DNA of 64,000 nt. Origin: Dehalococcoidales bacterium. GTDB lineage: Bacteria; Chloroflexota; Dehalococcoidia; Dehalococcoidales; BS750m-G39. Position 1 is the first letter of the stretch; each line of letters begins with the position of its first letter. Both the position numbers and the translations under genes were made by a program. The notes beneath the pieces were generated by a model. The model saw only the letters and a list, made by a program, of their open reading frames with translations, searched no databases and was not told the origin of the DNA. Location: assembly GCA_034419075.1 (NCBI GenBank), contig DAOULR010000022.1:2598-66597 (forward strand), in the 5' to 3' direction. Positions 30,487 through 54,393 of this stretch are shown one piece after another.

Positions 30487-30524
30487 TTAAAAAAGAGGGC
30501 CGAGAATTCTCTCGACCCTCTTTA
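30487..30524 (-). terminator. Hairpin terminator after the last gene of the element (possibly bidirectional)
   Basis: AGAGGGCCGAGA-attc-TCTCGACCCTCT stem flanked by an A-run (T-run on the minus strand). Confidence 0.6.
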
Positions 30525-30536
30525 GCTTTAACGATG

Positions 30537-31022
30537 TTAGAACTCGAACAACGCCGGCTGCTCCGCTTTTCTCTTAGTTGCCTCCTCCTCTTTCTCCTGC
30601 CTTCTCTCGGCCTTCTCCCTCTCCAGCCTGGCCTGGGTTCTCTTACGATAGAGCCATTCCTTCAGCCGATTCAGTTCTGCCAGCTGGTAATCATTGATTG
30701 AGTCCACGACGATATCGCCGGGCATCTCACTCTTACCCCACCGGCGACAGGTCTTGGTGGCGATGTGGAGGTAGATTTGGGTCCAGTCGCTGTCTATTGG
30801 CTGTGCCAGAGAGACAGTCATAAGGTAGGCGCAGACTTCGGCGTCGGTGCCGGCAATCTCCTCACCCCTGATTGCCCTGATGTTTATCTCCAGCCTCTCC
30901 AAGGTGACGGCCGTTTTAAGCCACTCGGGCAGAGTGTCTCCCCAACCCCCGGGGAAAACGATGATGGGATCGGTCAGGCACCCCACCAGCTCGGAGATGC
31001 CCTGTTCCATAGTCTTATTCAA
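30537..31022 (-). CDS. Hypothetical protein (161 aa) with charged C-terminal helix
   Basis: ORF track. Last gene of the minus-strand block. No family recognised. Confidence 0.5.
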   Translation of the reverse strand: MNKTMEQGISELVGCLTDPIIVFPGGWGDTLPEWLKTAVTLERLEINIRAIRGEEIAGTDAEVCAYLMTVSLAQPIDSDWTQIYLHIATKTCRRWGKSEMPGDIVVDSINDYQLAELNRLKEWLYRKRTQARLEREKAERRQEKEEEATKRKAEQPALFEF

Positions 31023-31087
31023 TTGTCCTTCTCACCTCCCTTTTAGTCTGATTTTGGGCATAGTAACCCTTTCAATCCTTTGCAGCC

Positions 31088-31384
31088 TTAAATCATCGAC
31101 TGCTGGCTGCCGTACTCCATGACCTTGCGCTCCTCCTCCAACGCTTCCTTGGGTATGAGGTTGCGGATGCGCTCGACGTAGCCCTTCATGTAGGTGTTGA
31201 AGCTATCCACTTTGGAGGCCATAGTGGCCGCGGGCTGGTCGATATACCCCGGCAGATGGGGTATTCGCTTAAGCTCCTCGGCTTTCTCACGGATTAGCCA
31301 CAGAGTCGGCCTGATGGAACTCATAAGCTCCTCGACCTCATCGGCATTACGGCTCACGCTGACCGTGCTCCACTTTATAGGCAC
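31088..31384 (-). CDS. Hypothetical protein (98 aa)
   Basis: ORF track. Co-directional. No family recognised. Confidence 0.45.
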   Translation of the reverse strand: MPIKWSTVSVSRNADEVEELMSSIRPTLWLIREKAEELKRIPHLPGYIDQPAATMASKVDSFNTYMKGYVERIRNLIPKEALEEERKVMEYGSQQSMI

Positions 31385-31433
31385 AAAATCACCTCCTTTC
31401 TGGGCATAGTTGCCCGTCCGATTCCGTCCTTGT

Positions 31434-31643
31434 TTAGTTAGCCGAGGGCGACATCATCCGTTTCATCATGGCGTCGAGAGCCTGCTTGACCAGCCACTCG
31501 CCCAGGCACTTCTCGTCGCACCAGGCTCCCAGCGTTAGCGGGACTTGCTGGCGCTCGTCGGTCAGCACCATAGCATCACGCTTCATGAAGTTGTCCTCAG
31601 GCAGCTCCTGGTTACAGTTGAGACAGTGAAGCTCCTCCATCAC
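31434..31643 (-). CDS. Hypothetical small protein (69 aa) with CxxC
   Basis: ORF track. GGAGG upstream. CLNC...C..C cysteines. Confidence 0.4.
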   Translation of the reverse strand: MMEELHCLNCNQELPEDNFMKRDAMVLTDERQQVPLTLGAWCDEKCLGEWLVKQALDAMMKRMMSPSAN

Positions 31644-31811
31644 TCGACCTCCTTTCCAGGTATTTCTTGGCTCTGGCCACAGAGAGGTAATCAGGGCACT
31701 TCTGGGAGCACCGGTGGCTGTGCCCCTTAAGACACCCCCTACAGAGCCAGTAGCACTTTCGCCTGTTGGGGCGACGGTAATTCAAATTCACCCCCTTCCA
31801 GCCACAAAAGA

Positions 31812-34566: not shown

Positions 34567-34721
34567 TCCACTACCTCATCGAACACGACCAGCGTAAAGG
34601 CTATCAGCATGGCGCCCATCACCGTGCCGGTGAGTTGCTGGGCGTACCATACGAGCTCCTCACCGGTGACCTTCCTGTCCTCTAAAACTTTTAGAGTAGG
34701 TAGGACAAAACCTGTAACCAC
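34557..34721 (-). CDS. Small membrane protein (54 aa), hypothetical
   Basis: Not in ORF track. GTG start overlaps the upstream stop by 1 nt. Its stop lies 8 nt inside the next gene. Has a TM helix (GAMLIAFTLVVF). Confidence 0.4.
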   Translation of the reverse strand: MVTGFVLPTLKVLEDRKVTGEELVWYAQQLTGTVMGAMLIAFTLVVFDEVVEWQ

Positions 34722-35242
34722 TATTCTGCCGTTCCTTTTCCGGTATCTTTGGCAGGAGCTTTTTCGCCTCCAGCTAATGCGGCAAGACCGCCGGCAACCC
34801 CTGCCACAACGGGGACTATTATCCCCGCCGTTACTAAAGCATTTACTACCGTCGGGCTTAGGGCTGATGGCATCTCGCCCTGTATTAGCACGTCGTCTCC
34901 GTCCTCTATCCCTTCTGCCTCGCCGGCGGTAACCTCGAGGAAGTATCGGGCTCCGGGGCTCGAAGTGTGGTCGAATATTACCTCCCTCTCGTTGGGCTGC
35001 ACCTGGTGCATCACGCCGACGACGCCCGCGGAGCTGCTGATGAAGATGATATCCAGGGCAAAGAGCATGCGGGACATATTGATTTGAACATGCCCCTGGT
35101 CGACGCCCATATCAAAGAGAATCCCGGTGCCGCTGGGAATACCAGATATCCCGCTGAGCCCCTGCGCCAGCTCGGCGTAGGTACTAGCCACCCCTACAAA
35201 CCATTGTCTATCTTTTACGGTTACGACTGCTTGTCCCGGCAT
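34721..35242 (-). CDS. DUF192-like protein with C-terminal hydrophobic/Gly-Ala tail
   Basis: GILFDM...MLFALDIIFISS...ARYFLEVTAGEAEGIEDGDDV follows the DUF192 pattern. Confidence 0.55.
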   Translation of the reverse strand: MPGQAVVTVKDRQWFVGVASTYAELAQGLSGISGIPSGTGILFDMGVDQGHVQINMSRMLFALDIIFISSSAGVVGVMHQVQPNEREVIFDHTSSPGARYFLEVTAGEAEGIEDGDDVLIQGEMPSALSPTVVNALVTAGIIVPVVAGVAGGLAALAGGEKAPAKDTGKGTAE

Positions 35243-35260: not shown

Positions 35261-35944
35261 TCATTCTTCCAGTATTTTCTGGAGCCACTCTCTGTGCTCC
35301 TTGCCGGATATTTTCCTGTATTTAGCCGTGGTGTTGAAGGAAGCGTGCCCCAGGTGCTCCTGCAGGAGCCTCAGGCCGTCACCGGAGTCGTCCTTCTTGA
35401 CCGCCATAATGGCGAAGGCGTCTCTCAACTTGTGAGGGCTGACATTATGGGCTCTGCCGGTTTCGGGGTTTACCAGCTTCCCCAAGCCCGCCCTCCGAGC
35501 GCATTCCTTCACTATCTGCCAAGCCCTGTGTCTATTGATGCCGAAGATGAGCCGTTTGCCGTTATGGGACACGGGCCCGCCACGGTCGATGTAGCTCTTG
35601 AACATATCCAGGGTGCCGTCGTCCACAGGCAGGGTTCTGACTCTGCGGTGCTGCCCCTCCGTAGCCACCGTTTTCTCCACCTTCACGCCGCAAGCTGGGC
35701 AGAACCGGGCCGTCTTGCTCAACCTGGCGCCGCAGTCGGGACAGGAAAGGTTAAGCCTCACCTTGAGGTGCTCGATGGTTACCGTGCCCTGCTCAAAGTC
35801 GATATCGCCCACGGCAATGCCGAGGGCCTCCGATATACGACAGCCCAGGTGGGCCAGCAGCCTGATAAGCAGCTTGTCGCGGAGGTATTCCCCTGCCTCT
35901 TCAAGCCGCTCCACTTCCTCCGGCTCAAGATACGTCTTGATCAC
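35261..35944 (-). CDS. Compact tyrosine recombinase (catalytic domain only) with an inserted Zn ribbon
   Basis: 227 aa. Catalytic landmarks GCRISE (R), HKLRDAF (HxxR), HLGHAS (H), TAKY (Y). Insert is CPDCGARLSKTARFCPACG. Confidence 0.8.
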   Translation of the reverse strand: MIKTYLEPEEVERLEEAGEYLRDKLLIRLLAHLGCRISEALGIAVGDIDFEQGTVTIEHLKVRLNLSCPDCGARLSKTARFCPACGVKVEKTVATEGQHRRVRTLPVDDGTLDMFKSYIDRGGPVSHNGKRLIFGINRHRAWQIVKECARRAGLGKLVNPETGRAHNVSPHKLRDAFAIMAVKKDDSGDGLRLLQEHLGHASFNTTAKYRKISGKEHREWLQKILEE

Positions 35945-36768
35945 TCTCTCACCCCGTAGTCGGTTATGGCGAAACTGCTCAACGTCGGCAGCACGGTAAA
36001 GCTTCCCATTATGCCGTCAACCTCCACCTGGTAGTTCCCGGCTTGCTGGGGAGTGAAGTAGAGGTAATAGCCTTCATATTGGCCAGGCATCCGGGTTACC
36101 GTCCTCGCGTCGATTATCTCTCCGTTGACAGTACACGTTACCGCCATAGATCCGGTTATTTCCCCCCTGTTGGCGACGATGATTAATATTTCGACGGGTT
36201 GGCCGACTCTGACCTCGGCGGGTTGAATCTGAACGCCGCTTATAAATAGATCCGGTGCCGGCGGCGGTGCCTCAACGACGTCTATGGTCAATCCTATATC
36301 CAAACCCTGCCACAGCCAGCGCAGTTCCCACTGTCCAGTACCCGGCATCGTCGGGTCCGGCACCCACTCTATGAGAACGCAGGAAGTTCTGATGGCGTAG
36401 GTTCCGAGAGGCAGATAAATATAGTGTGGCGGGGGACCGGTTACGCCGAAAGTGCGTATCGATGCCCCCACTTCGTAGAAGCCAGCCGGCTGGTCCCTGA
36501 CGCTGACGGCGTCGGCATAGGCGTCGCTGCCGATCCAGCTGTGGAACTGGTAGTACCTGCTGTCGGGGACGTATCCCCTGGCATCGAAGGGAGCGGCGTT
36601 ATGGCTGGACGACCGGCTTTGAAGCACGTAGGATTGGGGCAGGTAAGCCGAAACCAGGTAAGGCTTCCCGGGGTGCCTCGATTCCATATGAGCGATAAGC
36701 GACTCCTCCGTACCAAAGGTAGCACCGCAGTACGCGCAGGGGACTAGGATAGCTCCGTCCGACACCAT
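35941..36768 (-). CDS. C2H2 zinc-finger protein with C-terminal CARDB/Ig-like domain (275 aa)
   Basis: ATG overlaps the protease stop (TGATG). CAYCGATFGTEESLIAHMESRH is C-x2-C-x12-H-x4-H. C-terminal GQPVEILIIVANRGEITGSMAVTCTV. Upstream part of the 684-aa track ORF rejected. Confidence 0.65.
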   Translation of the reverse strand: MVSDGAILVPCAYCGATFGTEESLIAHMESRHPGKPYLVSAYLPQSYVLQSRSSSHNAAPFDARGYVPDSRYYQFHSWIGSDAYADAVSVRDQPAGFYEVGASIRTFGVTGPPPHYIYLPLGTYAIRTSCVLIEWVPDPTMPGTGQWELRWLWQGLDIGLTIDVVEAPPPAPDLFISGVQIQPAEVRVGQPVEILIIVANRGEITGSMAVTCTVNGEIIDARTVTRMPGQYEGYYLYFTPQQAGNYQVEVDGIMGSFTVLPTLSSFAITDYGVRE

Positions 36769-38048
36769 CAAACCCCCTTTATCATCATGCCCATCATCCC
36801 CACCACCATCACCATGGGCACCATAGTCTCCATCATCCCGGTGATTGGCGTCGTCGTCTTGACCAGCCTGTTCACCATTACTCCCACTGCCGGCAGCCCG
36901 TACCCGTAACTGTTGTCCTTGGCCACCTGAACCCCTTCCGGTTTCACGCAGTAGGCATAGGCGTACGGCATCCAGTCGTAATATGTAATCCTGACCTCCT
37001 GGCCGTAGACCCTCCTCGCCAGGTCCCAGAGCAGGCCGTCGACGCCGACAAGTATCGGCGCGGAGAAGGATGTACCCGACTTGACTTCGTAGTCGCTGTC
37101 GCCCTTGTGGCTGGCGAGCTCGATGGACTCGGCCCAGCAGACGAAATCGGGCTTGGTAGCTCCCTCGACGGTAGGGCCGCGGGAACTCTCCTCCCAGACC
37201 GTGAACTCCCAGGTCTTGATGCCGCCCACCGCCACCACCTTGGGCTCGCACGCCGGACACATCAGCGTGGTAAGCTTCGGCCCCTGGTTTCCCGCGGCGG
37301 CGATGATCTGGAGTCCGTATTGCTCGACCGCGGTTCGGCAGGCCACTCTCATCGGGTTGTCGAGGTCTCCGTCGTCCTCGCCGCCTACGCTGACGTTTAT
37401 GGTGTTGGGGTACATGGGGTCGGTGGCGGGAAGCCCCTGCTGGTTCGCCTGCTCGACCAGGCTGCACACCCGGTCGATGGCCTCCACCAGCATCTCGTCG
37501 GTGCCCTCGCCGCTGTCGTTGATGACCTTGAGGTTCATCAGGGATGCGCCGGGGGCTACTCCCGACCTCTGGCCGAACTCTCCGGCTATGACGTAGGCTA
37601 CACCCGTCCCGTGACCGAACACGTCGGTCGTGCTCTCCGATTCGGAGAAGTTGGCCCGGTAAACCACCTTGCCCTCCAGCGCCTCGTGAGTCTCCCTGAT
37701 GCCGCTGTCGCAGACCGCTACCGTGAGTCCTGTGCCGATAAGAGGCGGGGAATATGCCTGGCGCAACTCGTTGAATGTGTCGTAGAGGTTGAGACTGCTT
37801 ACGATGTCTTCGAGCTGCAGCGGCAGAGCGGGATTGGGGGCAGGGGCGAGCCTCTCCGTCGCCACCCTTTGAACCGGCTTCAGCTTGAGACCGGCGACGG
37901 AGGACAGCCTTTTCGCCTGCTCCTCGTCGAGGTCGCAGAATAGCTGCTTCGCCGCAGGCAGCGGTTTGATGTTCTTGGCCCCCACCCCCCTGCATTCCCG
38001 CTCCACCTGGTCTAAGGCAAGTTCCTTGGGGATTATTGCGTATCTCAT
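36768..38048 (-). CDS. Subtilisin-like (S8) serine protease with Met-rich hydrophobic C-terminal tail
   Basis: Catalytic triad contexts VAVCDSGI, HGTGVAYV, SGTSFSAP. Tail is GMMETMVPMVMVVGMMGMMIKGV. Confidence 0.85.
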   Translation of the reverse strand: MRYAIIPKELALDQVERECRGVGAKNIKPLPAAKQLFCDLDEEQAKRLSSVAGLKLKPVQRVATERLAPAPNPALPLQLEDIVSSLNLYDTFNELRQAYSPPLIGTGLTVAVCDSGIRETHEALEGKVVYRANFSESESTTDVFGHGTGVAYVIAGEFGQRSGVAPGASLMNLKVINDSGEGTDEMLVEAIDRVCSLVEQANQQGLPATDPMYPNTINVSVGGEDDGDLDNPMRVACRTAVEQYGLQIIAAAGNQGPKLTTLMCPACEPKVVAVGGIKTWEFTVWEESSRGPTVEGATKPDFVCWAESIELASHKGDSDYEVKSGTSFSAPILVGVDGLLWDLARRVYGQEVRITYYDWMPYAYAYCVKPEGVQVAKDNSYGYGLPAVGVMVNRLVKTTTPITGMMETMVPMVMVVGMMGMMIKGV

Positions 38049-38099: not shown

Positions 38100-38816
38100 T
38101 TACGCCGGATAGGTCAGCTGAACAGTGTAGGTTACCTTGAGCTGGCCGGTGTTGGGGACGGTTACAGTCGAAGACAGCTTGTCTCTAGCCATCAGAATAT
38201 ACATGGACGTGCTGTGAACAGTATTTCTAGCGGTTAAGCCAACTTCGTTAACATCTATGCTTCCCCCGCTGTTGTTGTTGAAATAACGAACCAGCTCGTC
38301 TTTCATAACCCTTGTTGCTGCTGTCCAAGTTACCTTATGTGTTTCGGCTGTAGCGTAGTTTAGTTCTCCTGCACCTGCTCCGTCGTTAATCAGCGTCTCC
38401 ATAACATAGTCGTCAAGGCTTTCCACGGTTGTTCCGCTACCGACTTGAATTCCTCTGGCATCGTCGCCACCACCGGCGATGTAACCATAAGTGGTGGGAA
38501 TGTCGTCCAAATCAGAGTCGCATATTCCAATACAGTGGTCATATCCGTAGATATTACCGTTTGTTTGCCTTAGGTTTAGATAACCATCGCCCCAATTTGG
38601 AGAGGGATCGTCTCCATTTTTAGTGGCTAGTTGACAAAACAATATGTTGTAAGCGTTTCTAACCCAGCTATGGCTTCTTTGTATATGAGTTTTAATTATC
38701 CCTCCGTCTTTATCCAGGACTTCCAGTTTCCAAAGAGCTTCTGGTATCGGGATATGCAAACGCTTTCCCATTTCTCTCAATCTGGCATATTCTCTTTCTT
38801 CGGCTGGGTTTAACAT
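38100..38816 (-). CDS. Hypothetical structural-module protein (238 aa)
   Basis: ORF track. GGAGG SD. No family recognised. Confidence 0.5.
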   Translation of the reverse strand: MLNPAEEREYARLREMGKRLHIPIPEALWKLEVLDKDGGIIKTHIQRSHSWVRNAYNILFCQLATKNGDDPSPNWGDGYLNLRQTNGNIYGYDHCIGICDSDLDDIPTTYGYIAGGGDDARGIQVGSGTTVESLDDYVMETLINDGAGAGELNYATAETHKVTWTAATRVMKDELVRYFNNNSGGSIDVNEVGLTARNTVHSTSMYILMARDKLSSTVTVPNTGQLKVTYTVQLTYPA

Positions 38817-38829: not shown

Positions 38830-39702
38830 TCACCATTTCCCTATCCAAGCCTGTGTTCCCAATGGTTGGGTGGTTACCGAGCTATAACTTGTTACCCTAC
38901 CTCTAATCCAATACAGCGTTGCGCCATCAACATCATGGTTTGCCCAATCATCGGGCCGGTTAAATTTGACGCTGTTCATGCCGGATGCCCTAAATCCGTT
39001 GCTGGTATCATGCACCCCTGGTAAAGCCGCCCAGGAGCTTCCATTCCAGTACTCCCAGGTTATAGTCCATGTACCGGCTCCGGCGGTGCCAATATTTAGG
39101 TTCAACCAATCCCACACCGAGGCATAGCCGAAGTAATAGGCGTCGTTTACCGCCGGCGTAGCCGGCAGCAGGGTCACATCGTTCGCATCAGCGTTGTTAA
39201 CCTCGGTGGTTTCATCGGTATACGTAGGTCCGCTGTGGTCATAAGCCCTGGCTCCGGCGACGGCATTCCCTCCGACCTGAGCGACTAATGCTTGGCTCAC
39301 GGCAGGCATGGGAACACTGAGCGTGTTCCCGGCTGCATGACCGCCGCCGGAGTGGTCTTCGACAACGGCCACGCCTACAGTTGGCGTGGGGATCTGCAGG
39401 GTTGGCAGGGCGATCATCCTGTTAACGGCGCCGGTTAAATAGGCGACTATGTCCTGGATGTCCATCCATTCCGGCATCAGAGCGCCCGTGTTTCGCATGT
39501 GGAGGAAGTTGTAGCCGACGCCGTACTCCCCTGCCAGCTTCTCCAGAACGTCCAGCCCCCGGTAGGCGATGTCGCCCTCGACCATACCGGCCACTATCGC
39601 CTTAAGGTTACGGATCTCCCTGGCCTGCCAGTTCTTGTCGGCGTCTATCTCGATTTCCGACAGCTTCGATATTCCTATTCCCGCCTTGGTCAGCCAGCTC
39701 AT
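38830..39702 (-). CDS. Hypothetical structural-module protein (290 aa)
   Basis: ORF track. Beta-rich C-terminal domain (..WTITWEYWNGSSWAALPG..). Confidence 0.5.
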   Translation of the reverse strand: MSWLTKAGIGISKLSEIEIDADKNWQAREIRNLKAIVAGMVEGDIAYRGLDVLEKLAGEYGVGYNFLHMRNTGALMPEWMDIQDIVAYLTGAVNRMIALPTLQIPTPTVGVAVVEDHSGGGHAAGNTLSVPMPAVSQALVAQVGGNAVAGARAYDHSGPTYTDETTEVNNADANDVTLLPATPAVNDAYYFGYASVWDWLNLNIGTAGAGTWTITWEYWNGSSWAALPGVHDTSNGFRASGMNSVKFNRPDDWANHDVDGATLYWIRGRVTSYSSVTTQPLGTQAWIGKW

Positions 39703-40666: not shown

Positions 40667-40671
40667 GCCCC

Positions 40672-41091: not shown

Positions 41092-41094
41092 TAG

Positions 41095-44301: not shown

Positions 44302-44316
44302 AGAAACAGAGGCGGC

Positions 44317-44690: not shown

Positions 44691-44746
44691 CCGATAAAAG
44701 AAAGTAAGCCCTGTGAGCCGACTTTCATCGGCAAACTCACAGGGCT
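44691..44746 (-). terminator. Rho-independent terminator
   Basis: AGCCCTGTGAG...CTCACAGGGCT stem followed on the minus strand by TTACTTTCTTTTAT. Confidence 0.6.
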
Positions 44747-44992: not shown

Positions 44993-45234
44993 TAGGTCCT
45001 CTCGCCTTCCATGTTGAATAGCTGGTAGAGCATCTGCGTTACGCTGGTCACGATCCCCTCCTGCAACTGGGGTACGAGCTTGGCTGCCTCCGGGTCGTCC
45101 GTCTTGAGGGTGACTTCCACGAGGTTATCTCCGGTGTGGATTACGTAGCCGATCTTTTTCGTCAGCGCCTGCATGCTCGCCAGCTGCTCCCGCTGCTGCG
45201 GGGTGGCAAACGCCATTGGATTGAATACCATCAT
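44992..45234 (-). CDS. Hypothetical protein (80 aa)
   Basis: ORF track. 4-nt overlap with the upstream gene. Confidence 0.45.
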   Translation of the reverse strand: MMVFNPMAFATPQQREQLASMQALTKKIGYVIHTGDNLVEVTLKTDDPEAAKLVPQLQEGIVTSVTQMLYQLFNMEGERT

Positions 45235-46165: not shown

Positions 46166-47092
46166 TCAAGGGATACCCCCTCCCCCCTCCGGCAACAACA
46201 GCTCAATCGCCCTCTGGACGCCCAGGTCGGGGGCGAGCCGGGCTACCCTCACGGCGTCCCTGACATCCTGTGACCGGCCGTCGAGCCGCTCGGCTATCTC
46301 CTCGGCGACCGGAGGCGGGAGCCCTTCCCGGCGAACCAGCACGCCCCTCACCACGGTCCTGAACTCGTCCCTGCCGTAGGCGCCGAGCCTCCGGATGGCG
46401 AAGCGCGACCTGAGCTCCGGGGAGAGCCTGTCCTCGACGTTGGTGGCGGCCACGACCTTCAGCTCCAGGCTGGTATTGAGTTCCCGCCCCTTCTTCGCCC
46501 TGACCATGCGCCCGCCCTCCATGATGCTGAGGAGGGCCGCGGTATCGGCGGCGTTCACCTTGTCCAGCTCGTCCACCAGCAGTACCTCCGGCCGCCTCTC
46601 CGCTACCAGGTCCCACAGCCCCGCCTTCGATATCGCCGAGCCGACCAGCCAGACCGTCTTCTCCCCGCCGGCTCTCTCGATATCCCATAGGAACAGGGTC
46701 TTGGCCAGCGCCGGCGGGCCGGTCAGCAGCACGTGAACCGCCTTTTCCGCCAGCAGGCAGGCCCTGAGCAGCTCCTTTACGTCGTCATGGCCGATAATAT
46801 CCTGGAAGATGTCCTCGGGAACCCCTAGTTTTCGATTCTGCTTCGTCTCAGCACGGTTGGGCGCGCCGTCGAGGAGCACGGCCCGGGCCTCGGGTGTCAG
46901 CCTGTAACCGTGGTACGAGTTGGACTCGTAGACGTCCTCGACGAGCCCCTCCATCCGCAGCTTCGTCAAGGCGCCCGGCCACACCCCGACGTCGCGGGAG
47001 CGCCAGCCCAGCTTGGCGGGCAGGCTCTCCGGGTCGAAGCCGTCCTCGGCCTCGGCTATGCGGCGGAGCAGCTCGACGTCGGTTTCTTTCAC
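46166..47092 (-). CDS. AAA+ ATPase with N-terminal winged-helix-like domain and deviant Walker A
   Basis: 308 aa. Walker A GPPALAKT (Ala where Gly is canonical), Walker B LLVDELD, sensor-1 VVAATN. Confidence 0.75.
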   Translation of the reverse strand: MKETDVELLRRIAEAEDGFDPESLPAKLGWRSRDVGVWPGALTKLRMEGLVEDVYESNSYHGYRLTPEARAVLLDGAPNRAETKQNRKLGVPEDIFQDIIGHDDVKELLRACLLAEKAVHVLLTGPPALAKTLFLWDIERAGGEKTVWLVGSAISKAGLWDLVAERRPEVLLVDELDKVNAADTAALLSIMEGGRMVRAKKGRELNTSLELKVVAATNVEDRLSPELRSRFAIRRLGAYGRDEFRTVVRGVLVRREGLPPPVAEEIAERLDGRSQDVRDAVRVARLAPDLGVQRAIELLLPEGGGGIP

Positions 47093-47463
47093 TGTAATCC
47101 CCTTTGCCTCTTGATCATCTCGTAGGCGGCCAGCACTATCTGCAGCAGGAAGCCGGTACCCGGCGTGCCCGACTTGTCCGGGTGGAGCCTGTTCACCAGC
47201 TCCCGGTACCGCTCCTTCAGCTCATCGTCGGAGGCGGACTTGTCCAGCCCCAGAATCTGATAGGGGTCGAATAACGGTTGCTGCCCCGCCAGCCCGGGCA
47301 GACGGGAAAAATCCACCCCCATCTGCCTCATAAGATCCATGAGCTTCGCCGGGTCCAGGGCGCCTCTCAGGAAGCCGTCCGTCCAGCCACGTATCTCTTC
47401 CTGGAAGACCCTCATCCACCGGCGGCAGATCCTTGCCAGGAGTTCCCTGCTGTTGGCTGTCAT
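47089..47463 (-). CDS. J-domain (DnaJ-like) protein
   Basis: DPYQILGLDKSASDDELKERYRELVNRLHPDK, with the HPD tripeptide. Confidence 0.75.
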   Translation of the reverse strand: MTANSRELLARICRRWMRVFQEEIRGWTDGFLRGALDPAKLMDLMRQMGVDFSRLPGLAGQQPLFDPYQILGLDKSASDDELKERYRELVNRLHPDKSGTPGTGFLLQIVLAAYEMIKRQRGLQ

Positions 47464-47466
47464 GCC

Positions 47467-47730
47467 TTACCTCCAATCGTTGTCGAAGTCCTTGCAGCCG
47501 CGGCACGGCGCCACCAGCCGGGCCACCCGCACCACCCCGTTGTAGGTGAGCCGGCGCCTGTGCCGGTCATATTCGGCCGTCATCGGGTGTCCCTTCCGGC
47601 AGCGCACGTATATTCCCTCGTCGGGCGCCAGGCAGTGGCGGCAGTTCCTGGTGCTCACCTCGCCGGTGGGCCACGGCTTAACGACCGCGAACCGCTTCGG
47701 CGGCTTTCTCAACTTGGTTTCTACTGTCAT
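47467..47730 (-). CDS. Small Cys-rich (Zn-ribbon-like) protein (87 aa)
   Basis: CRHC...CRKGH...CRGC. Confidence 0.45.
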   Translation of the reverse strand: MTVETKLRKPPKRFAVVKPWPTGEVSTRNCRHCLAPDEGIYVRCRKGHPMTAEYDRHRRRLTYNGVVRVARLVAPCRGCKDFDNDWR

Positions 47731-48128
47731 CCCGTTGCTCCTTCTCTTTCCCGCTTCTCAACGCCGGTGACCGTGGCCCCGGCCAGCTTCTTGGCCTCGT
47801 GAATCAGCTTCAAGGTGCTGTCGTCAACCTCGAGGAGATACTCCAGCTCCTGCTCGAGATACGTGGGATAGCCGGCGGGAAAGCCGCCGACGAGCTCGTC
47901 TCTCAGGACGACTACCACCTCGTCGCCCAGGGCGCGGCAACGCCAGAGGCACCAGCCCCTTGTTGCCAGCAGCTCGCTTGTGCTAGCCTTCTCCTGCGCC
48001 CGGCGCAGCTCCTCCTCAAGCCCGGCCAGCTCCTCTTCCCACGAGTCAGTAGCCATCCCCTTCGCCCTGGCCAGGGCTATGGCCCTCCTGCCCCTCTCTA
48101 TGCGCGAGTTAATGTCCCGACTCTTCAC
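47727..48128 (-). CDS. Hypothetical protein (~133 aa)
   Basis: GTG 48128 chosen. The longer track ORF (to 48419) overlaps the primase-helicase gene in another frame. Confidence 0.4.
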   Translation of the reverse strand: MKSRDINSRIERGRRAIALARAKGMATDSWEEELAGLEEELRRAQEKASTSELLATRGWCLWRCRALGDEVVVVLRDELVGGFPAGYPTYLEQELEYLLEVDDSTLKLIHEAKKLAGATVTGVEKREREGATG

Positions 48129-50325
48129 TTGCCACCTCGTCGAGAAAGTCGTCCCAGGGGTCTTTTGCTTCCCTATCCCCGGGAAGTCCGTCATTACCGT
48201 CACAACCGCCACCGCCAGATATGGAGCCAGCTTGTGACGGTTTTTCCGGGCTCTCCAAACCGTCACCCTCTTCCCTGTCTGGCAGTGACAGTAATGACGG
48301 TTGTGACGGTTTCTCCTGGGATAGAGGGGTTTGCGCCAGCCCGTAAAGAGAGGCCAGCTGCCTGACCCGGTTCTCGTCCCAGCGGATAAACCTCGACTTC
48401 GAGGTCCGCTCCTTTCCAAAACCCAGCTTCTTGGTCATCCAGCCCACCTTCTCCGAGGTCAGCGCCGGGGCGTCGTTATCCATCTCATTGACCTTGTCGG
48501 TTATATTCCTTATGGTGAGCTCGGCGCCCTCGCCGTGCAGCTCGATAATGGCCGCCAGCACCCTGCCCAAGGCGCTCTCGCGGCGCCTTGAGAAAAGCGT
48601 CTCCTGGAGCCGGTGGATGAAGGCGCTGAGGCTCTCGGCCATGGCCCGGTCGCCGTTGACCATCGCCTTGAGCGGAATCAGGATCTCCTGCAGCCTGGGC
48701 TGGAGGTTCGGCTCGAGAAGGTCGTTGCCGAAGGTCCTGCCCTTGAGCTTGAGCAGGTTGGCCAGCCTGAAGGTGAGCAGCTTCGAGCGCAGCTGTTTGA
48801 CCTCGGTGTCAAACGACGGCGGCAGCACCCTGGGGATGTCCGGCCTGGTCAAGGGCATCATCTCGGCGGTGAGGCACCGGCTCTCCAGGGCTTCGTCCTT
48901 GAAGGTGGAGCGCGTGGCGATGAGCTTGGGGCCGAAGACCTGGTAGCCGTGGGGGTACCACTTGCCGTCCTCCTTGTCCGACCTTAGCACGGGGAAGTTG
49001 GGGCGGTAGCCGTTGTTCAGTATCTTGACCATCTCTACCCAGGCCGAGGAGTCCTTGAAGTCGGCCTCGTCGAGGACCAGCGTCCCCTGGAACTTGTCCA
49101 GGATGCGGAAGATGGGAGACGGGGTAGTTGCCCCCGAGGCGAAGATGGGTCGAAAGCAAACTCTTCCCACGACGTCCAGAAACCTGGTCTTGCCGGAGCC
49201 CCAGTCGCCGATGACCCTCAGGTAGGGAATGGAGGGGGCAAACTCGTAGACCCAGGTCAGCAGCACGTACAGGGCGGCGATGTCCTCGAAATCGGCAGGG
49301 AGCTCAATATACTGGTGGATGAAAGCCTTGGCCTCACCGAACAGGGTGGCCTGGGAGTCGTAGGGCGCGGCGGTGGCGGCGAAATGCACCACCTGGCCCA
49401 CCAGGGGGTCGCCTGTTGGTATATAGGTAACCCTGCCGGTCTGGTACTGAAGCACCTTCCTCACCGACCCGCCCACCAGCACGATGAATGACCGTTCCCC
49501 GGCGTCGCTCACTATCATCTCGCCCACAGTTCCGTCAGGAAGAATAAAGCCCGATACGCTCCGCTCAATGGTCCGGCTCTCCTCGCCGTCAAGCTCCCCC
49601 GCCAGCTGCCGGGCGTCCTCCAAGGAATGCTCCAGGAGGTAATCGTCGATGCCCACCTTCCGGTCGCCCGGCTGGGGAAGACGAATCGCCAGGACGTTCG
49701 CCTCTCTGCGCCGGAGGTGCTCTGCAATGCGTCCGAGAGCTTTCCTGACCGGCTCCTTGGTGACGACATCCGAGTCGAAGGAAAGGTAAACGACGCGCTC
49801 CTTGAGGGCGATGTAGTCCCAGTCGGCAAGCAGGGTAACGCCGCCGAGCTCGTTTTTACCCTTGAACCCCCAGACGCCGGTGAGAGAAACGGAGCAGGCC
49901 CCGTGCGACGCCAGAGAGTCTGCCTTCTTGCTGCCCTCGGTCACCCACAGCGGAACTCTCGGGTCGCTGAGCATCTTCCGGCAGCGTGGAGGGCAGTCAA
50001 GCCTGTTGGCCGAACCCCTGGGAGACTCGTATTTCACCGGCCTGCCCCTGGCGTCAACCCGGGGATTATCGGGCCGGTATTGATAGCCAGCCTCCTTGCC
50101 GTCAACTCCCCAGAGAGGAATGAGGATGCCCGGGGTGCGCTGCTGCGCCGGGGTAAAGCCCAGCTCCTTGATCTCAGCTTTGCCCAGGAGACTCCGGTAA
50201 CCCCGCTCCCTGATCGCGTCGGCGCTTACGCCGCTTCCCTCCTGAAGGTGCCTCATGTGGCTTTCCAGGAGCTCAGGGATATCCTTTGAGAAAACATGGC
50301 CGGCTTCCTTTGACTCGGTGCTCAT
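48109..50325 (-). CDS. Primase-helicase-like replication protein (Toprim/DUF3854-like N-terminus + P-loop NTPase)
   Basis: 738 aa. PLWVTEGSKKADSL acidic Toprim-like segment, Walker A GDWGSGKT, Walker B LVLDEAD. Confidence 0.7.
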   Translation of the reverse strand: MSTESKEAGHVFSKDIPELLESHMRHLQEGSGVSADAIRERGYRSLLGKAEIKELGFTPAQQRTPGILIPLWGVDGKEAGYQYRPDNPRVDARGRPVKYESPRGSANRLDCPPRCRKMLSDPRVPLWVTEGSKKADSLASHGACSVSLTGVWGFKGKNELGGVTLLADWDYIALKERVVYLSFDSDVVTKEPVRKALGRIAEHLRRREANVLAIRLPQPGDRKVGIDDYLLEHSLEDARQLAGELDGEESRTIERSVSGFILPDGTVGEMIVSDAGERSFIVLVGGSVRKVLQYQTGRVTYIPTGDPLVGQVVHFAATAAPYDSQATLFGEAKAFIHQYIELPADFEDIAALYVLLTWVYEFAPSIPYLRVIGDWGSGKTRFLDVVGRVCFRPIFASGATTPSPIFRILDKFQGTLVLDEADFKDSSAWVEMVKILNNGYRPNFPVLRSDKEDGKWYPHGYQVFGPKLIATRSTFKDEALESRCLTAEMMPLTRPDIPRVLPPSFDTEVKQLRSKLLTFRLANLLKLKGRTFGNDLLEPNLQPRLQEILIPLKAMVNGDRAMAESLSAFIHRLQETLFSRRRESALGRVLAAIIELHGEGAELTIRNITDKVNEMDNDAPALTSEKVGWMTKKLGFGKERTSKSRFIRWDENRVRQLASLYGLAQTPLSQEKPSQPSLLSLPDREEGDGLESPEKPSQAGSISGGGGCDGNDGLPGDREAKDPWDDFLDEVASEESGH

Positions 50326-50357: not shown

Positions 50358-51338
50358 CTACGTGCTCGAGGAGTAGCGCTCCACAGCCCTCAGAAAATGA
50401 GCCAGCTGCTCGGCAGTCAGGTTGGCCGGCGGCGATACCGACTCAAAGTCCTTGAGCCTGACGCTGATGCGATAGTTTCTCTCGAACCAGTCGGATATCT
50501 GCCAGTCCTGAACGTTGAGATGCCAGACCCTGGTCTTCGCCGTGTCCCACAGTCGGGCCAGCTCCTCGTCCTGGGGCGAAGACTGGCCTGTTTCGCCCTC
50601 CGCCAGTGTCTCCTCGGGGAAAAGGTCGTCCGGCGCCTCGCTGTCGGGCGGCGGCAGGATTAAGGCTTTCGCCGGCGGTATCTGGGCGTACCTCTGTATT
50701 TCAGACAGGGAATAGGGACAGGTCAGGCTGAGGACGTAAACCTTTTTCCTTCTGCCGTCGGGCTGAACTTCCTTCTCGACCAGCTTCAGCGAAAGCGGTA
50801 TCATTGATACCCGCTGGCAAATGCTCTTTATCAGCGCCAGCTCCGAGTTAACGCTCAACATCGAGTGGTAAGAGGTCGTGTCGAGCTGGTAAACGCCAAA
50901 GCCCGGGCAGTCGGGTATGAGAAACTGCAGGTTCATCACCCTCCGGCACTGCCCCCGCCGGTGGTAAGCGCAGCTATCCGGGCTGCAAACGATCTCTCTT
51001 AACTCGGTCGCCGCCGCATCCATGGCGGCTATCTCGCCCGTCTTGACGTCGACCCTGGCCACCGCCGTCTCGCCGTCGCCGCGGCAAATCAGGACCCGCG
51101 TTGCCGAGTAGCACCGGAGATACTGGCTGGCCCATTGCTCGCTGTCCTCGGTAGGAAACATGATCCGCAGCTCTTTCGGCTTTTCCCCGAAGACCTTCCT
51201 GACCTCCTGGGGGCAGACAAAATAGTCGGTCGGCGTGGGGTAGCTCACCCCGCCGTCGGCGCTTTTCTTCACTCCCAACCTTATCCTGCCCAGCCGAGGC
51301 AGCCTGACAATTTCAGATATTCCCTTTATCGGCGACAT
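50358..51338 (-). CDS. Hypothetical early protein (326 aa)
   Basis: ATG 51338 preceded by AAGGAGG. No family recognised. Confidence 0.5.
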   Translation of the reverse strand: MSPIKGISEIVRLPRLGRIRLGVKKSADGGVSYPTPTDYFVCPQEVRKVFGEKPKELRIMFPTEDSEQWASQYLRCYSATRVLICRGDGETAVARVDVKTGEIAAMDAAATELREIVCSPDSCAYHRRGQCRRVMNLQFLIPDCPGFGVYQLDTTSYHSMLSVNSELALIKSICQRVSMIPLSLKLVEKEVQPDGRRKKVYVLSLTCPYSLSEIQRYAQIPPAKALILPPPDSEAPDDLFPEETLAEGETGQSSPQDEELARLWDTAKTRVWHLNVQDWQISDWFERNYRISVRLKDFESVSPPANLTAEQLAHFLRAVERYSSST

Positions 51339-51542
51339 GCGAACCTCCTTCTGTATCCACCATGCACGGGCTTTTATGGTCGCCCAGCAACCCTTCCCTA
51401 CGACCGATGGTGACCGCCAGATCAAGGAGAGTGCGGAGCCTCTGCTCCACTACCCTCGGCTTACGCTCCGATGACGTATGAATCTCAACCTGATCCGCCT
51501 GACTTATCACCATGACCATAAAGATCCCCTATCGTATTCCTG

Positions 51543-51755
51543 TTACTGCTGATGCTGAACGGTATGGTTGTTATCGGATATGAAATAATGCCGGGCCACC
51601 GCTCTCCTCACCAGGGTGCTGATGTCGGTCCTCTCCAGCTCGGCTATCCTCTCCAGTTCGTCATAGTCCTCCTGGGAAAAGAGCACCCGGAGGGACACCT
51701 TGTTCTTGCCAACCACGCTCGGTCTACCTTTGCTCATCTCATCCTCCAGCGGCAT
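51543..51755 (-). CDS. Ribbon-helix-helix (CopG/Arc-like) protein, Cro-position regulator
   Basis: KVSLRVLFSQEDYDELERIAELERTDISTLVRRAVARHY. Divergent from the repressor gene. Confidence 0.7.
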   Translation of the reverse strand: MPLEDEMSKGRPSVVGKNKVSLRVLFSQEDYDELERIAELERTDISTLVRRAVARHYFISDNNHTVQHQQ

Positions 51756-51766
51756 AAATCGTAATA

Positions 51767-51795
51767 ATATTACTATGGTTATATAATGCTGTCAA
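51767..51795 (-). promoter_or_regulatory. Leftward consensus promoter (TTGACA-17-TAATAT) with overlapping GTAATAATATTAC operator
   Basis: The minus strand reads cTTGACAgcattatataaccatagTAATATtattac. Confidence 0.6.
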
Positions 51796-51888
51796 GAGGC
51801 TTTTGTCGTCATTATATTACCTAAATACCCGCTGTTTTATGCCTGATATTGCTCTAAACGACGGCTGTGACACGGCGACAGGAGGGGC

Positions 51889-51920
51889 TTGACAACCTGC
51901 AATAATGGTAGTAATATTAC
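51889..51920 (+). promoter_or_regulatory. Rightward consensus promoter (TTGACA-17-TAATAT) with overlapping palindromic GTAATATTAC operator
   Basis: TTGACA at 51889-51894, TAATAT at 51912-51917, palindrome at 51911-51920. Confidence 0.6.
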
Positions 51921-51953
51921 CATATATTACTAATTTCATATGGGAGAAAAATC

Positions 51954-52370
51954 ATGCCTATTGCTTTGGCACAACTGATCAGGGAGGCGCGAGCACGTCT
52001 CGGCCCCATGACTCAAGGAGAGCTGGGCAAGCTGGCCGGGACCAGCCTCGAGAACATCACCGCCATAGAGAACGGGCGTAACCGGCAGCCAAAACCGGAG
52101 CTCATCGCCGGCCTGTCACGCGCCCTGAACCTGAGGATTGAAGACATATACGCGTCCATCACCGGTAACCTGAACCGGTTCCCCTGGGACAGGGTGAGCG
52201 ACCTCGACCTGAAAGACGCCGAGCTGGAGCTCATGTTTCGCCAGGTCGATAGCCTGCTGGAAGGCGAGGCCAGGGATCGGGTTAAAGCGTTCATACGTTT
52301 CACCCTTGATGAAGAGAGGCGGAAACTGGCAAAGGAGAAGGAAGCGCAGGAACGAGACAAACCGACGTGA
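51954..52370 (+). CDS. XRE/cI-like HTH repressor
   Basis: MTQGELGKLAGTSLENITAIENGRNRQP helix-turn-helix. First gene of the lysogeny module. Confidence 0.8.
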   Translation: MPIALAQLIREARARLGPMTQGELGKLAGTSLENITAIENGRNRQPKPELIAGLSRALNLRIEDIYASITGNLNRFPWDRVSDLDLKDAELELMFRQVDSLLEGEARDRVKAFIRFTLDEERRKLAKEKEAQERDKPT

Positions 52371-52392
52371 CTTTGTTTATGAGGAGCGAGCT

Positions 52393-52878
52393 ATGGTCAG
52401 TATGGCGGTTAAGAAGGCGGAGGAGCTGCACCGCAGGCATCCGGGAATCACCTTCCCCCTGGACATGGAATCGGTAGCTACCACCGAGGGTTGCGAGTTG
52501 GTGACCTGGCCCTTCCTCAGGCCGGTCAAAGAGGTAAAGCGGGGGCGCTGGATCGGCCTGGCCGAGGGACTGGAAGATAGAGAGCGCCGCCATCTGATCG
52601 CCCACGCCCTCGCGCATCACCTCTTGCACCGCGGGAACCAGCTCGCCTTCCACGAGCTGCAAAGGATAAACCTTTACAAGCAGGAAAGAGAGGCCGAGGA
52701 GTGCGCCGCCCACATCCTGATGCCGGAGTCAGAGCTGGCTAGGCTCGGCCGTATAACTACCTGGGAAATGTCGGATTACTTCGGGATCCCCGAGGAGCTG
52801 GCGAGGAAAAGGGTAAGCGATTTCGCTACCGACGAAGAGCGGGTACGCTGGGAAAAGTTGAGTCTTTGGGAGGACTAA
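52393..52878 (+). CDS. ImmA/IrrE-like protein with altered metal motif (HALAH instead of HExxH)
   Basis: ATG 52393 after GAGGAG. RRHLIAHALAHHLLH aligns to the M78 peptidase xxAHElgHxxlH. Confidence 0.65.
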   Translation: MVSMAVKKAEELHRRHPGITFPLDMESVATTEGCELVTWPFLRPVKEVKRGRWIGLAEGLEDRERRHLIAHALAHHLLHRGNQLAFHELQRINLYKQEREAEECAAHILMPESELARLGRITTWEMSDYFGIPEELARKRVSDFATDEERVRWEKLSLWED

Positions 52879-52879
52879 G

Positions 52880-54391
52880 ATGGTCAAGGAACTAGAAAAC
52901 AGACCGGCAAGGTGCTGCATCTACGCCCGGGTCTCAACCGATGAACAGGCCGAGCGGGACCTCTCAATCCCCTTTCAGCTGGAGAGGTGCCGCTACCATG
53001 CCCAGGGCAACAGCTGGGAAATCGTTGCCGAGTTCGTCGACGCCGGCGAAAGCGCCCGCACCGACAAGCGCCCCGAGTTTCAGAAGATGATCGCCTCGGC
53101 CAGGGCCAAAGACTTCGACGTTATTCTGGTGCACAAGTTCGACCGATTCGCCAGAAACGACTACGACTTCGTCGTCTACGAGAAAGAGCTGGAAGACTTG
53201 GGCATAACGGTGGAGAGCGTGAGCGAGCCCGGCGACGCTTCTACTCCAGCCGGCTATATCGGCCGACGGATGATGCAGGTCATCAGCACCTGGTACTCCA
53301 AGAACCTGGCCATCGAAGTGAAGAAGGGAATGCAGAAGGCCGTTGAAAACGGCGGCTGGCCCAAGAAAGCACCCTTCGGTTATTTGAACAAGCACGACAA
53401 GAACTCGGCGTGGGTCGAGGTCGACCCGAAGAACGGGCCGTTCGTCACCCAGGCTTTCCAAGAGATGGCTACCGGCCGCTGGACGCTCGAGGAGTGGGCG
53501 GACCAGGCCTATTCTTTAGGCTATACCAGCCGAAACGGTAACCGAGTAGTCAAACAGGCATGGAGCGCCATATTTCACAACCGGTTTTACCTTGGTGAGA
53601 CCTGGCTTAAAGACGGGGATACGCCCATCAAGGGGAAACACCAACCGCTGGTGGATGAAAATGTCTTTTTCCAGGTGCAGGACGTCCTGAGGCAGCACGA
53701 CAAGTATAAGCAACGCACCCAGCGCCACAAGTACCTGCTGCGCGGGCTGCTCTACTCCCTCGACGCCGACAGCTCGTGCTGGGCCGAGACGCACGTCAGA
53801 AAACGGATAAGCTACTACCGCACCCGCGCTAAAGCGGATGAGGGCCATGTGTTCTACAATACCAAGGACATTGAGGCACAGCTTCCCGACATCTTCAGAA
53901 GCGTGACCATTAGCCAGGATACCCGACAGCAATTGAGGCAGGAGCTGGCGGACTGGTTCGGGACTGAGGCTGGCAGTAACGAAGACCTGAAAAAAGCGGA
54001 GGCCCGGCTGACCAAGTTGGAAAAAATGGAGAAAAACCTCCAGCGGCTGGTTATCGAGGAGGAGATATCCTTTAAGGACTTCAAGGAACACCGGTCACGC
54101 ATCGAAGCGGAGAGGAGCCGACTGAGGAATACCGTAGACGCAATAAGGCAACGCCAGCATCTTGTCAAAGCTGATTTTGAGATAGCCCTTCAATTGGCCA
54201 CTGAGCTGGATTTCCTTTTTGACAAGGGTAACTTCGATGAGAGACGATTGCTCTGCGAAACGGTGCTCAAACGCCTGTATGTAAAAGAAGGCAAGGTTAC
54301 TAAGGTGGAGCTTAACTCGCCGTTCGCCCTTATCGCATCAAGGGCGGATGGTTCGGAATCTGTCTTGAGTGGTGGGCGGTACAGGACTTGA
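52880..54391 (+). CDS. Large serine recombinase (integrase)
   Basis: 503 aa. Resolvase catalytic N-terminus (CCIYARVSTDEQ), recombinase domain, coiled-coil C-terminal region. Its last codons contain a copy of the tRNA-Val 3' end. Confidence 0.9.
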   Translation: MVKELENRPARCCIYARVSTDEQAERDLSIPFQLERCRYHAQGNSWEIVAEFVDAGESARTDKRPEFQKMIASARAKDFDVILVHKFDRFARNDYDFVVYEKELEDLGITVESVSEPGDASTPAGYIGRRMMQVISTWYSKNLAIEVKKGMQKAVENGGWPKKAPFGYLNKHDKNSAWVEVDPKNGPFVTQAFQEMATGRWTLEEWADQAYSLGYTSRNGNRVVKQAWSAIFHNRFYLGETWLKDGDTPIKGKHQPLVDENVFFQVQDVLRQHDKYKQRTQRHKYLLRGLLYSLDADSSCWAETHVRKRISYYRTRAKADEGHVFYNTKDIEAQLPDIFRSVTISQDTRQQLRQELADWFGTEAGSNEDLKKAEARLTKLEKMEKNLQRLVIEEEISFKDFKEHRSRIEAERSRLRNTVDAIRQRQHLVKADFEIALQLATELDFLFDKGNFDERRLLCETVLKRLYVKEGKVTKVELNSPFALIASRADGSESVLSGGRYRT

Positions 54392-54393
54392 AC
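54369..54393. repeat. 25-nt duplicate of the tRNA-Val 3' end (att-like direct repeat) inside the integrase 3' end
   Basis: GTGGTGGGCGGTACAGGACTTGAAC recurs at 54446-54470 within the tRNA. Confidence 0.9.

Follow-up and report, generated by a model that had tools for sequence, protein, structure and literature searches.

A 24-kb element integrated beside a tRNA-Val gene of a Dehalococcoidales bacterium as a probable provirus of a tail-less, membrane-containing virus

In a 64,000-nt stretch of contig DAOULR010000022.1 from a Dehalococcoidales bacterium (the window, in which all coordinates are positions), an integrated element of 23,908 bp adjoins a tRNA-Val gene at about 30466-54373, its exact crossover being deduced from its junctions. 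With a probability of roughly 60%, we regard it as the intact provirus of an undescribed tail-less, membrane-containing double-stranded DNA (dsDNA) virus lineage of Dehalococcoidia. An earlier sequence-only reading had described here a ~24-kb integrated element with a phage-like switch and replication module, the gene content of which fitted a membrane-containing or pleomorphic non-tailed virus. The element and all the named gene classes were found where that reading had placed them, and its interpretation gained inferential support, as the jelly-roll-like fold of a 264-amino-acid (aa) late protein and a set of tail-anchored membrane proteins favor the membrane-containing branch. Related contigs and loci are referred to by labels of the form Lxxx.

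Late block and candidate virion proteins

The late block spans approximately 10 kb of densely packed genes with overlaps of 1-10 nt, in agreement with the chain of small overlapping genes described earlier. Its features, together with the control elements upstream, are as follows.

35941-36771, minus strand: 276-aa protein that carries a C2H2 zinc finger at its N-terminus and a CARDB/filamin-like Ig domain at its C-terminus (Pfam, all just below gathering score)
36768-38048, minus strand: subtilisin-like S8 protease, 426 aa, with a methionine (Met)-rich C-terminal transmembrane tail (Pfam 1.7e-27; PHROG 2.2e-40)
38100-38816, minus strand: 238-aa core protein with no annotated relatives (weak BclA_C match, 0.026)
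38830-39702, minus strand: 290-aa core protein of predicted all-beta structure, its C-terminal beta-sandwich (residues 150-290) being well predicted (AlphaFold2 pLDDT 77)
39699-42673, minus strand: seven small late genes, encoding 159, 163, 139, 181, 128, 62 and 152 aa (no Pfam or PHROG match)
42875-43669, minus strand: 264-aa core protein, predicted all-beta and jelly-roll-like, with a disordered basic N-terminal arm (AlphaFold2 pLDDT 79.6, pTM 0.70)
43693-44050, minus strand: two tandem paralogous small hydrophobic proteins of 42 and 66 aa (Met-rich transmembrane segment, then ATEK)
44044-44529, minus strand: two proteins, one of 85 aa whose N-terminus holds a transmembrane segment and one of 70 aa that is soluble (hydropathy)
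44702-44746, minus strand: copy 1 of a conserved terminator-like hairpin that lies upstream of the structural block
44780-45971, minus strand: first genes of the late unit, encoding 246 aa, followed by open reading frames (ORFs) of 80 and 70 aa
45991-46071, minus strand: sigma-70-like promoter (46071-46043), with hairpin copy 2 (46035-45991) immediately after it

The 264-aa protein is the candidate for a jelly-roll-like major capsid protein. The Foldseek list obtained with its model from the PDB was dominated by single jelly-roll capsids, namely those of gemini-, nano-, noda- and circoviruses, satellite tobacco necrosis virus (STNV), P23-77 (VP16) and SPV1, and 43 matches at E <= 1e-3 were found in BFVD, mostly to capsids of CRESS-DNA viruses with TM values of 0.2-0.35. 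Since these values are so low, the capsid assignment is a lead and not a proof. A PDB profile search with the family gave nothing useful, and tblastn with the protein found no match in 50,697 phage records or 72,556 plasmids. More than 190 homologs were nevertheless collected, all from Dehalococcoidia/Chloroflexota or unnamed metagenomes, and in a set of 1.84 billion representatives the family accounts for 108 clusters at 50% identity.

Of the seven late proteins that are hydrophobic, six end in a Met-rich transmembrane tail, namely the two tandem small proteins encoded upstream of the 264-aa gene, the S8 protease and the proteins of 139, 152 and 163 aa. Among the products of the seven small late genes, that of 62 aa is transmembrane, and that of 152 aa has a transmembrane segment in addition to its Met tail. 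The tails, which have as many as 14 Met among the final 30 residues and are similar at the DNA level too (36772-36833, 40176-40261, 40667-40752, 42222-42307, 43695-43780 and 43857-43942), recur in the relatives covering these genes, including distant ones, and may represent an unrecognized membrane-targeting or sorting signal. On our own reading of the sequences, made without a signal-peptide predictor, the proteins carrying them have no evident N-terminal signal peptide. In every relative covering the position, the 42/66-aa gene pair lies directly upstream of the 264-aa gene, and its products are candidates for the major virion membrane proteins. The S8 protease, a family core gene product in which inspection likewise found no signal peptide, is a candidate maturation protease; it is the largest late ORF product, as had been noted, followed by the 290- and 264-aa proteins, both all-beta. 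A 684-aa ORF at 35941-37995 was rejected as a high-GC artefact, because it overlaps the S8 gene out of frame and has an Arg/Gly-rich translation.

The block had also been thought to be dominated in part by Ig/CARDB-like paralogs. This holds only in part: CARDB was detected in one protein only, below threshold, and the 181- and 139-aa proteins alone are demonstrable paralogs (hhalign 99.6%). The C-termini of the 128-, 181- and 276-aa proteins (41644-41690, 41095-41140 and 35941-35990) resemble one another in the pattern (D/E)FSxFx(I/V)xDY, with weak hhalign support, and the three late proteins with this ending are those without a Met tail. The 246-aa core protein has an N-terminal helix-turn-helix (HTH) and a helical C-terminal part, and gave weak PHROG matches to DNA-binding proteins.

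The 290-aa protein is a candidate spike or host-recognition protein. Its C-terminal domain resembles domains at the ends of large viral proteins, the best BFVD match being at 2.7e-10 (TMt 0.78), and has a PDB profile match at 4e-7 to orf18 of the portal-tail complex of Legionella phage LME-1. For the 238-aa protein, no Pfam, PHROG, PDB or phage match was found beyond the BclA_C similarity, and tblastn against the 50,697 phage records was null. The 290- and 238-aa genes form a mobile pair, being duplicated in some relatives and present in an unrelated element as well, which is the behavior expected of an exchangeable host-recognition module. This second, unannotated element type is represented by L022 (1-17040) and L023 (ENA k141_585533, Logan SRR9617644_8321); it has the homologous pair and the same hairpin, lacks Met-rich tails and an S8 protease, and gave no match in Pfam or PHROGs. 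None of the PHROG scans of L022 gave a match, and the function of the pair was not clarified by this context.

The element has two copies of a 40-nt hairpin, AGCCCUGNGAG...CUCNCAGGGCU, each with a U-rich tail behind it; the second copy comes directly after the promoter upstream of the first late gene. One such hairpin was found in each of ten related loci (for example L001 8972-9010, L003 8975-9012 and L022 4573-4612), where it precedes the structural genes in all relatives tested, and its stem has eleven invariant and two covarying pairs. An Rfam search with it found no match. We infer that promoter and hairpin may together act as a termination/antitermination checkpoint for the late genes.

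Searches of the late ORFs against Pfam and PHROGs returned no terminase, portal, HK97 capsid, tail, lysin, Zot/FtsK/HerA ATPase or conjugation match, which upholds the absence of tailed-phage and conjugation genes previously noted by eye. Sixteen ORFs at 38.1-46.0 kb have no significant Pfam or PHROG match, and PHROGs were significant among the late proteins for the S8 protease and a tyrosine recombinase alone. These scans found no large terminase of the Caudoviricetes type, an ATPase-nuclease usually longer than 400 aa; among real genes, a canonical Walker A motif occurs in the primase-helicase only and a deviant one in the AAA+ protein. No profile matched a portal or an HK97 capsid, and the AlphaFold2 models of the 264- and 290-aa proteins are all-beta and thus incompatible with both folds; if the S8 protease and the CARDB/zinc-finger protein are set aside, the other late ORFs encode at most 246 aa. 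For tail tube, tape measure and baseplate there was likewise no match, the sole link being the beta-sandwich that the 290-aa protein shares with LME-1 orf18. Sensitive searches with Pfam, PHROGs, PDB profiles and the two models thus found none of the terminase, portal and HK97 capsid proteins that would identify a tailed phage.

Family, integration sites and early genes

Sixteen genes, from that for the recombination directionality factor (RDF) through that for a DUF192 protein, are common to several elements at 31-71% identity. The family includes an element of D. mccartyi (CP177166.1, L001), several from metagenome-assembled genomes (MAGs) of Dehalococcoidia, a relative in IMG/VR (L003) and an Omnitrophica-binned contig (L020). 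A search of IMG/VR and of related genomes, proposed with the earlier reading, thus yielded one IMG/VR relative and syntenic elements in several Dehalococcoidia genomes. In L024 and L027, the same structural block, from the small Met-rich and jelly-roll-like proteins to the S8 protease, is combined with different early genes, as expected of a viral morphogenesis module. The hosts of the relatives are nearly all Dehalococcoidia/Chloroflexota, and the host range may extend beyond them. Members from MAGs of other phyla are L020 (JAQUPM010000001.1, labelled Omnitrophica) and P0296 (labelled Phycisphaerae).

The features outside the late block are listed below.

30455-30475, no strand: left junction (attL), inferred from alignment with L016 and L017 and good to +/-10 nt
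30494-30525, minus strand: terminator-like hairpin 3' of the last left-arm gene, conserved in L016 and L017
30537-34721, minus strand: accessory left arm with ORFs of 161, 98 and 69 aa, the beta-clamp gene, and ORFs of 152, 188 and 54 aa
31918-33126, minus strand: DNA polymerase III beta-clamp homolog (Pfam DNA_pol3_beta_2/3 4e-9; PHROG processivity factor 1.3e-34)
34721-35242, minus strand: DUF192 protein with two hydrophobic segments (Pfam 1.9e-16; hydropathy)
35261-35944, minus strand: short tyrosine recombinase that has just the catalytic domain, into which a zinc ribbon is inserted (Pfam Phage_integrase 8e-20; Zn_Ribbon)
46166-47092, minus strand: AAA+ ATPase with an N-terminal winged-helix-like region (Pfam 2.2e-7; PDB RuvB 1e-8; PHROG clamp loader 9e-8)
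47089-47463, minus strand: J-domain protein (Pfam DnaJ 1.9e-11)
within 47089-48110, minus strand: two small ORFs beside the J-domain gene
48109-50325, minus strand: primase-helicase, a DUF3854/Toprim-type primase with a P-loop, GDWGSGKT (Pfam DUF3854 1.6e-20)
50358-51425, minus strand: phiC31 Gp3-like RDF, likely start 51341 (Pfam PF18897 1.1e-48)
51543-51755, minus strand: divergent ribbon-helix-helix (RHH) repressor-like gene (Pfam sub-threshold only; PHROG repressor 2e-5)
51954-52370, plus strand: cI-like HTH gene (Pfam)
52393-52878, plus strand: ImmA/IrrE-type M78 metallopeptidase, an anti-repressor protease (Pfam 5.9e-11)
52880-54391, plus strand: large serine integrase, 503 aa (Pfam Resolvase 1.4e-32, Recombinase 2.3e-7; PHROG 2.4e-78)
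54369-54393, no strand: right junction (attR), a pseudo-tRNA fragment of 25 nt that duplicates the tRNA-Val 3' end
54447-54522, minus strand: intact tRNA-Val(cac) of the host, 52 nt past the junction

At ~30.5-54.4 kb the genes lie almost throughout on the minus strand, except for the three-gene plus-strand arm (cI-like HTH, ImmA/M78 and integrase), which adjoins the tRNA-Val(cac) gene. The GC content of the element is 58.0%, and that of its left and right flanks 45.8% and 54.9%. Its ends, given previously as 30487 and 54393, were shifted to about 30466 and 54373 by comparing the junctions with those of relatives. Two close relatives from a single metagenome, L016 and L017 (81-97% protein identity), are homologous through the final gene and the terminator hairpin and then split into different host genes; homology to them stops near the TGGT at 30466-30469, and the same tetranucleotide is present at the right junction. 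The 25-nt copy at the right junction recurs 77 nt further on, within the intact tRNA, and supplies the final seven codons of the integrase. Within the cluster of integrases at 90% identity, the C-termini vary right after ...SVL(S/N)GG. In L014 the integrase gene passes directly into an intact tRNA-Ile(gat) and in L015 into tRNA-Val(tac), both breaking at one identical point, ...CTTGA(G/A)TGGTGGG, so that these two genes are joined, at one and the same nucleotide, to integrases with at least 94% identity, and three tRNA genes are used when the present one is included. As the integrases occur at three tRNA genes and the left flanks differ between close relatives, the region is not core genome, a possibility that had been raised for all relatives. 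The fusion to intact tRNA genes in relatives, and to a 25-nt fragment here, suggests an earlier integration or deletion event, and the target at this site was a pseudo-tRNA fragment, 52 nt from the real gene, that was probably left by such an event.

A search for repeats joining both ends found none longer than 12 nt, TGGT being common to both junctions. A short core without long direct repeats is as expected for a serine integrase, and TGGT is the putative att core. The predicted attP junction is ...GAATCTGTCTTGAGTGGTTCGTGCAGCACCGGAG... and the predicted empty attB is ...CACAAGATAATGGTGGGCGGTACAGG.... With its Resolvase and Recombinase domains, a Gp3-family RDF and att sites that have a short core only, the integration system is of the phiC31 type.

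Near the left junction, a 54-nt direct repeat with 85% identity, rich in GTCAAGAA and TATCAAGAA units, occurs at 27803-27856 and 30330-30383. The two copies stand upstream of two host operons beside a KdpD-like kinase gene and are probably binding sites of a host regulator; the second copy indicates that position 30383 is still host DNA. In the window at 1-30000, GC is very uneven (6-12 kb, ~60%; 15-23 kb, 38-50%), and further islands may be present there.

In the switch region, the serine integrase, cI-like repressor, ImmA-like protein and divergent RHH gene reported before were all found, the last below the Pfam threshold. The ImmA/M78 gene truly starts at about 52393, in line with a 161-aa gene call in L014 and L015, and the RHH-cI intergenic region contains a 44-nt inverted repeat (51765-51808 / 51876-51919). 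Additional to the earlier description are the Gp3-like RDF, the internal tyrosine recombinase, the DUF192 protein and the beta-clamp. The tyrosine recombinase is a family core gene product (65-68% identity), for which we propose dimer resolution of the circular replicon; inverted repeats fit to be its substrates were searched for in the element and none was found, and an IMG/VR scan with it matched the zinc ribbon only. The DUF192 protein is also a core gene product (40-46% identity in distant relatives), and the accessory left arm is present in the close relatives L016 and L017 only.

The primase-helicase, AAA+ ATPase and J-domain protein claimed earlier have Pfam support, and the first is the most conserved gene of the family (62-71% identity). 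In the AAA+ ATPase, Walker A is deviant (GPPALAKT versus GPPGxGKT) and Walker B normal (LLVDELD). As it is nearest to RuvB in the PDB and to phage clamp loaders in PHROGs, and the element has its own beta-clamp, a role in replication and not in packaging is indicated.

Known virus groups and competing explanations

By function, the closest analogs are membrane-containing tail-less viruses, and no homology of the element with these groups was shown. Portogloboviridae (SPV1) and Sphaerolipoviridae/Matshushitaviridae (P23-77, IN93) have dsDNA of ~17-20 kb, a lipid membrane, small membrane proteins and single jelly-roll capsids; SPV1, from an archaeal host, lacks a packaging ATPase, IN93 is temperate, and sphaerolipoviruses have an ATPase of the FtsK/HerA type. 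No sequence homology of the element to this group was detectable, and the fold matches of the 264-aa protein to VP16 (3zn4) and SPV1 (6oj0_Z) are weak. Pleolipoviridae and Plasmaviridae are pleomorphic enveloped viruses of hosts without peptidoglycan; their virions consist mainly of membrane proteins and spikes, they have neither capsid-type packaging machinery nor lysin, and some members are temperate. PHROG and tblastn searches found no similarity to them, and the element adds a jelly-roll-like capsid candidate and a protease. The FtsK/HerA-type packaging ATPase of Tectiviridae, Corticoviridae and Sphaerolipoviridae was not found in Pfam or PHROG scans; as to the vertical jelly-roll major capsid proteins of these internal-membrane icosahedral viruses, the model of the 264-aa protein matched jelly-roll capsids at TM scores of just 0.2-0.35. 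Inoviridae likewise do not accommodate the element, as there is no match to Zot or to a Rep of the ssDNA rolling-circle kind, its length is 23.9 kb versus less than ~12 kb, and a primase-helicase is present.

Several points weigh against a provirus. Its particles, excision and packaging are predictions from sequence. A metagenome scan did not find the predicted attP junction (CTGTCTTGARTGGTTCGTGCA); its sole match, on L021, was rejected as an attP contig, because L021 is otherwise dissimilar to the element and the match is due to chance. Nor was a circular contig demonstrated. Pfam, PHROGs and the Walker A survey revealed no packaging ATPase, virus-prediction pipelines caught one relative only (L003, in IMG/VR), and the jelly-roll matches are weak, with TM of 0.2-0.35 and PDB E-values of 5e-3 or worse. 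Beta-sandwiches, moreover, are frequent in adhesins and tail proteins too.

These points leave some room, perhaps one chance in a few, for a non-viral integrative element with phage-like excision and replication, the late block of which would build cell-surface or vesicle structures and which would spread through vesicles or cell contact, if it were transferred at all, or else for a helper-dependent satellite. The lack of a packaging ATPase and of a capsid recognizable by sequence would suit such an element, as would the many late proteins that are membrane-bound or Ig/CARDB-like, and the IME1 elements of Dehalococcoides were themselves initially read as satellites or as similar to phage-inducible chromosomal islands (PICI) (Nesbo et al., 2026; bioRxiv 10.64898/2026.09.15.751708). 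The anchoring of the Met-tail proteins argues otherwise: with a C-terminal anchor only and, as read from their sequences and not by a predictor, no N-terminal signal peptide, the bulk of each would face the cytoplasm and not the cell surface. In addition, the 264-aa late protein, which is widely conserved, bears a resemblance, if a weak one, to capsid jelly-rolls, the ~10-kb late module pairs with different early modules in the manner of viral morphogenesis modules, and Pfam and PHROG scans found no conjugation genes. Phage satellites of the PICI/P4-like kind have ~8-15 kb and few or no structural genes, unlike the 23.9 kb and the full, conserved late block of this element.

It is improbable, in our estimate, that the element is a divergent member of the IME1 lineage. 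IME1 comprises non-tailed elements of 21-28 kb that dominate viromes of Dehalococcoides and has been proposed to be a filamentous or budding dsDNA virus, with a pI/Zot-like (FtsK-family) ATPase in its central module as the marker placing it among filamentous viruses (Nesbo et al., 2026; bioRxiv 10.64898/2026.09.15.751708). It further features an XerCD-type tyrosine recombinase as the first coding sequence (CDS), a large putative metallophosphoesterase CDS and 14 conserved HOGs, and IME1-like contigs in other phyla were attributed to mis-binning (bioRxiv 10.64898/2026.09.15.751708). Our comparison was made with the main-text description in that preprint. The element shares with IME1 the Dehalococcoidia host, the tRNA/pseudo-tRNA site, the length (23,908 bp; IME1 ~23 +/- 2 kb), a primase-helicase, a Cro/C1 repressor, tyrosine and serine recombinases, small hydrophobic proteins, a CARDB protein and the lack of tailed-phage hallmarks, and the Omnitrophica- and Phycisphaerae-labelled homologs echo the mis-binned contigs. 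Unlike IME1, it has no pI/Zot-like ATPase (no Zot, FtsK or HerA match in Pfam or PHROGs), the only ATPases being the RuvB-like protein and the primase-helicase. Its terminal CDS is a large serine integrase, accompanied by the Gp3-like RDF, and its tyrosine recombinase is internal (35261-35944); no scanned ORF had a metallophosphoesterase match in Pfam, no opposite-strand repressor lies within the structural block, and the GC content is above that of the host, whereas that of IME1 is below it. The S8 protease, the J-domain protein, the jelly-roll-like protein and the AAA+/beta-clamp pair are unmentioned in the main text of the preprint, and the small proteins did not match the PHROG of SSV1 VP1.

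The early region resembles that of phiC31/phiBT1-type actinophages in its large serine integrase with a Gp3-family RDF and in its cI/ImmA-type switch, and the primase domain is 26-31% identical to primases of Streptomyces and Actinoplanes phages. The actinophages have the terminase, portal, HK97 capsid and tail genes of siphoviruses, none of which is present in the element, and the integrase of the element targets tRNA 3' ends. The earlier-known Dehalococcoides prophage is Siphoviridae-like. A decayed or highly divergent tailed prophage, with its head and tail genes lost or unrecognizable, is very hard to credit despite these likenesses and the C-terminal domain that the 290-aa protein shares with a podovirus portal-tail complex protein, because the same set of intact ORFs is kept at 31-71% identity across many distant relatives, which speaks against decay, because no ORF is long enough, or has the P-loop, for a large terminase, and because the all-beta models of the two largest unknown late proteins do not fit an HK97 fold.

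Proposed cycle and significance

For a tail-less, membrane-containing provirus, the gene content would be compatible with the following cycle. ImmA would inactivate the repressor, whereupon RDF and integrase would excise a circle by crossover in TGGT at the tRNA 3' end, and the tyrosine recombinase may resolve replicon dimers. Late transcription would start from the promoter at ~46071 and pass through the conserved terminator hairpins by antitermination. The 264-aa jelly-roll-like protein would form a shell or nucleoprotein layer, the tail-anchored Met-rich proteins would provide a lipid layer derived from the host membrane, the membrane-anchored S8 protease may mature the 264-aa and Met-rich components, and the 290- and 238-aa proteins could serve as host-recognition spikes. 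Neither a packaging ATPase nor a lysin would be used, which would fit assembly by budding or condensation in a host without peptidoglycan; Dehalococcoides has no peptidoglycan wall.

A more ambitious proposal, which we hold only tentatively and consider rather doubtful, is that of a new lineage at family level or above, defined by temperate dsDNA, a single jelly-roll capsid, a Met-rich membrane derived from the host, a virion subtilase and no packaging ATPase. If true, it would be a bacterial counterpart of the archaeal portoglobo- and pleolipo-like viruses, enabled by the peptidoglycan-free, archaeon-like envelope of Dehalococcoidia; being separate from IME1, it would mean that at least two independent groups of non-tailed viruses occur in Dehalococcoidia, missed by current detection pipelines.

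Collections contain few temperate bacterial viruses without a tail, and this family is nearly invisible to standard pipelines, in a host class that is abundant in the subsurface and includes key organohalide-respiring organisms of bioremediation. The family supplies a candidate jelly-roll capsid, a conserved Met-rich signal for membrane anchoring and a conserved RNA hairpin of the late genes. Its serine integrase, acting at several tRNA 3' ends, could with the recognizable RDF become a genetic tool for a group currently without any. A second tail-less virus-like lineage beside IME1 would suggest that wall-less bacterial envelopes favor morphotypes like those of archaeal viruses.

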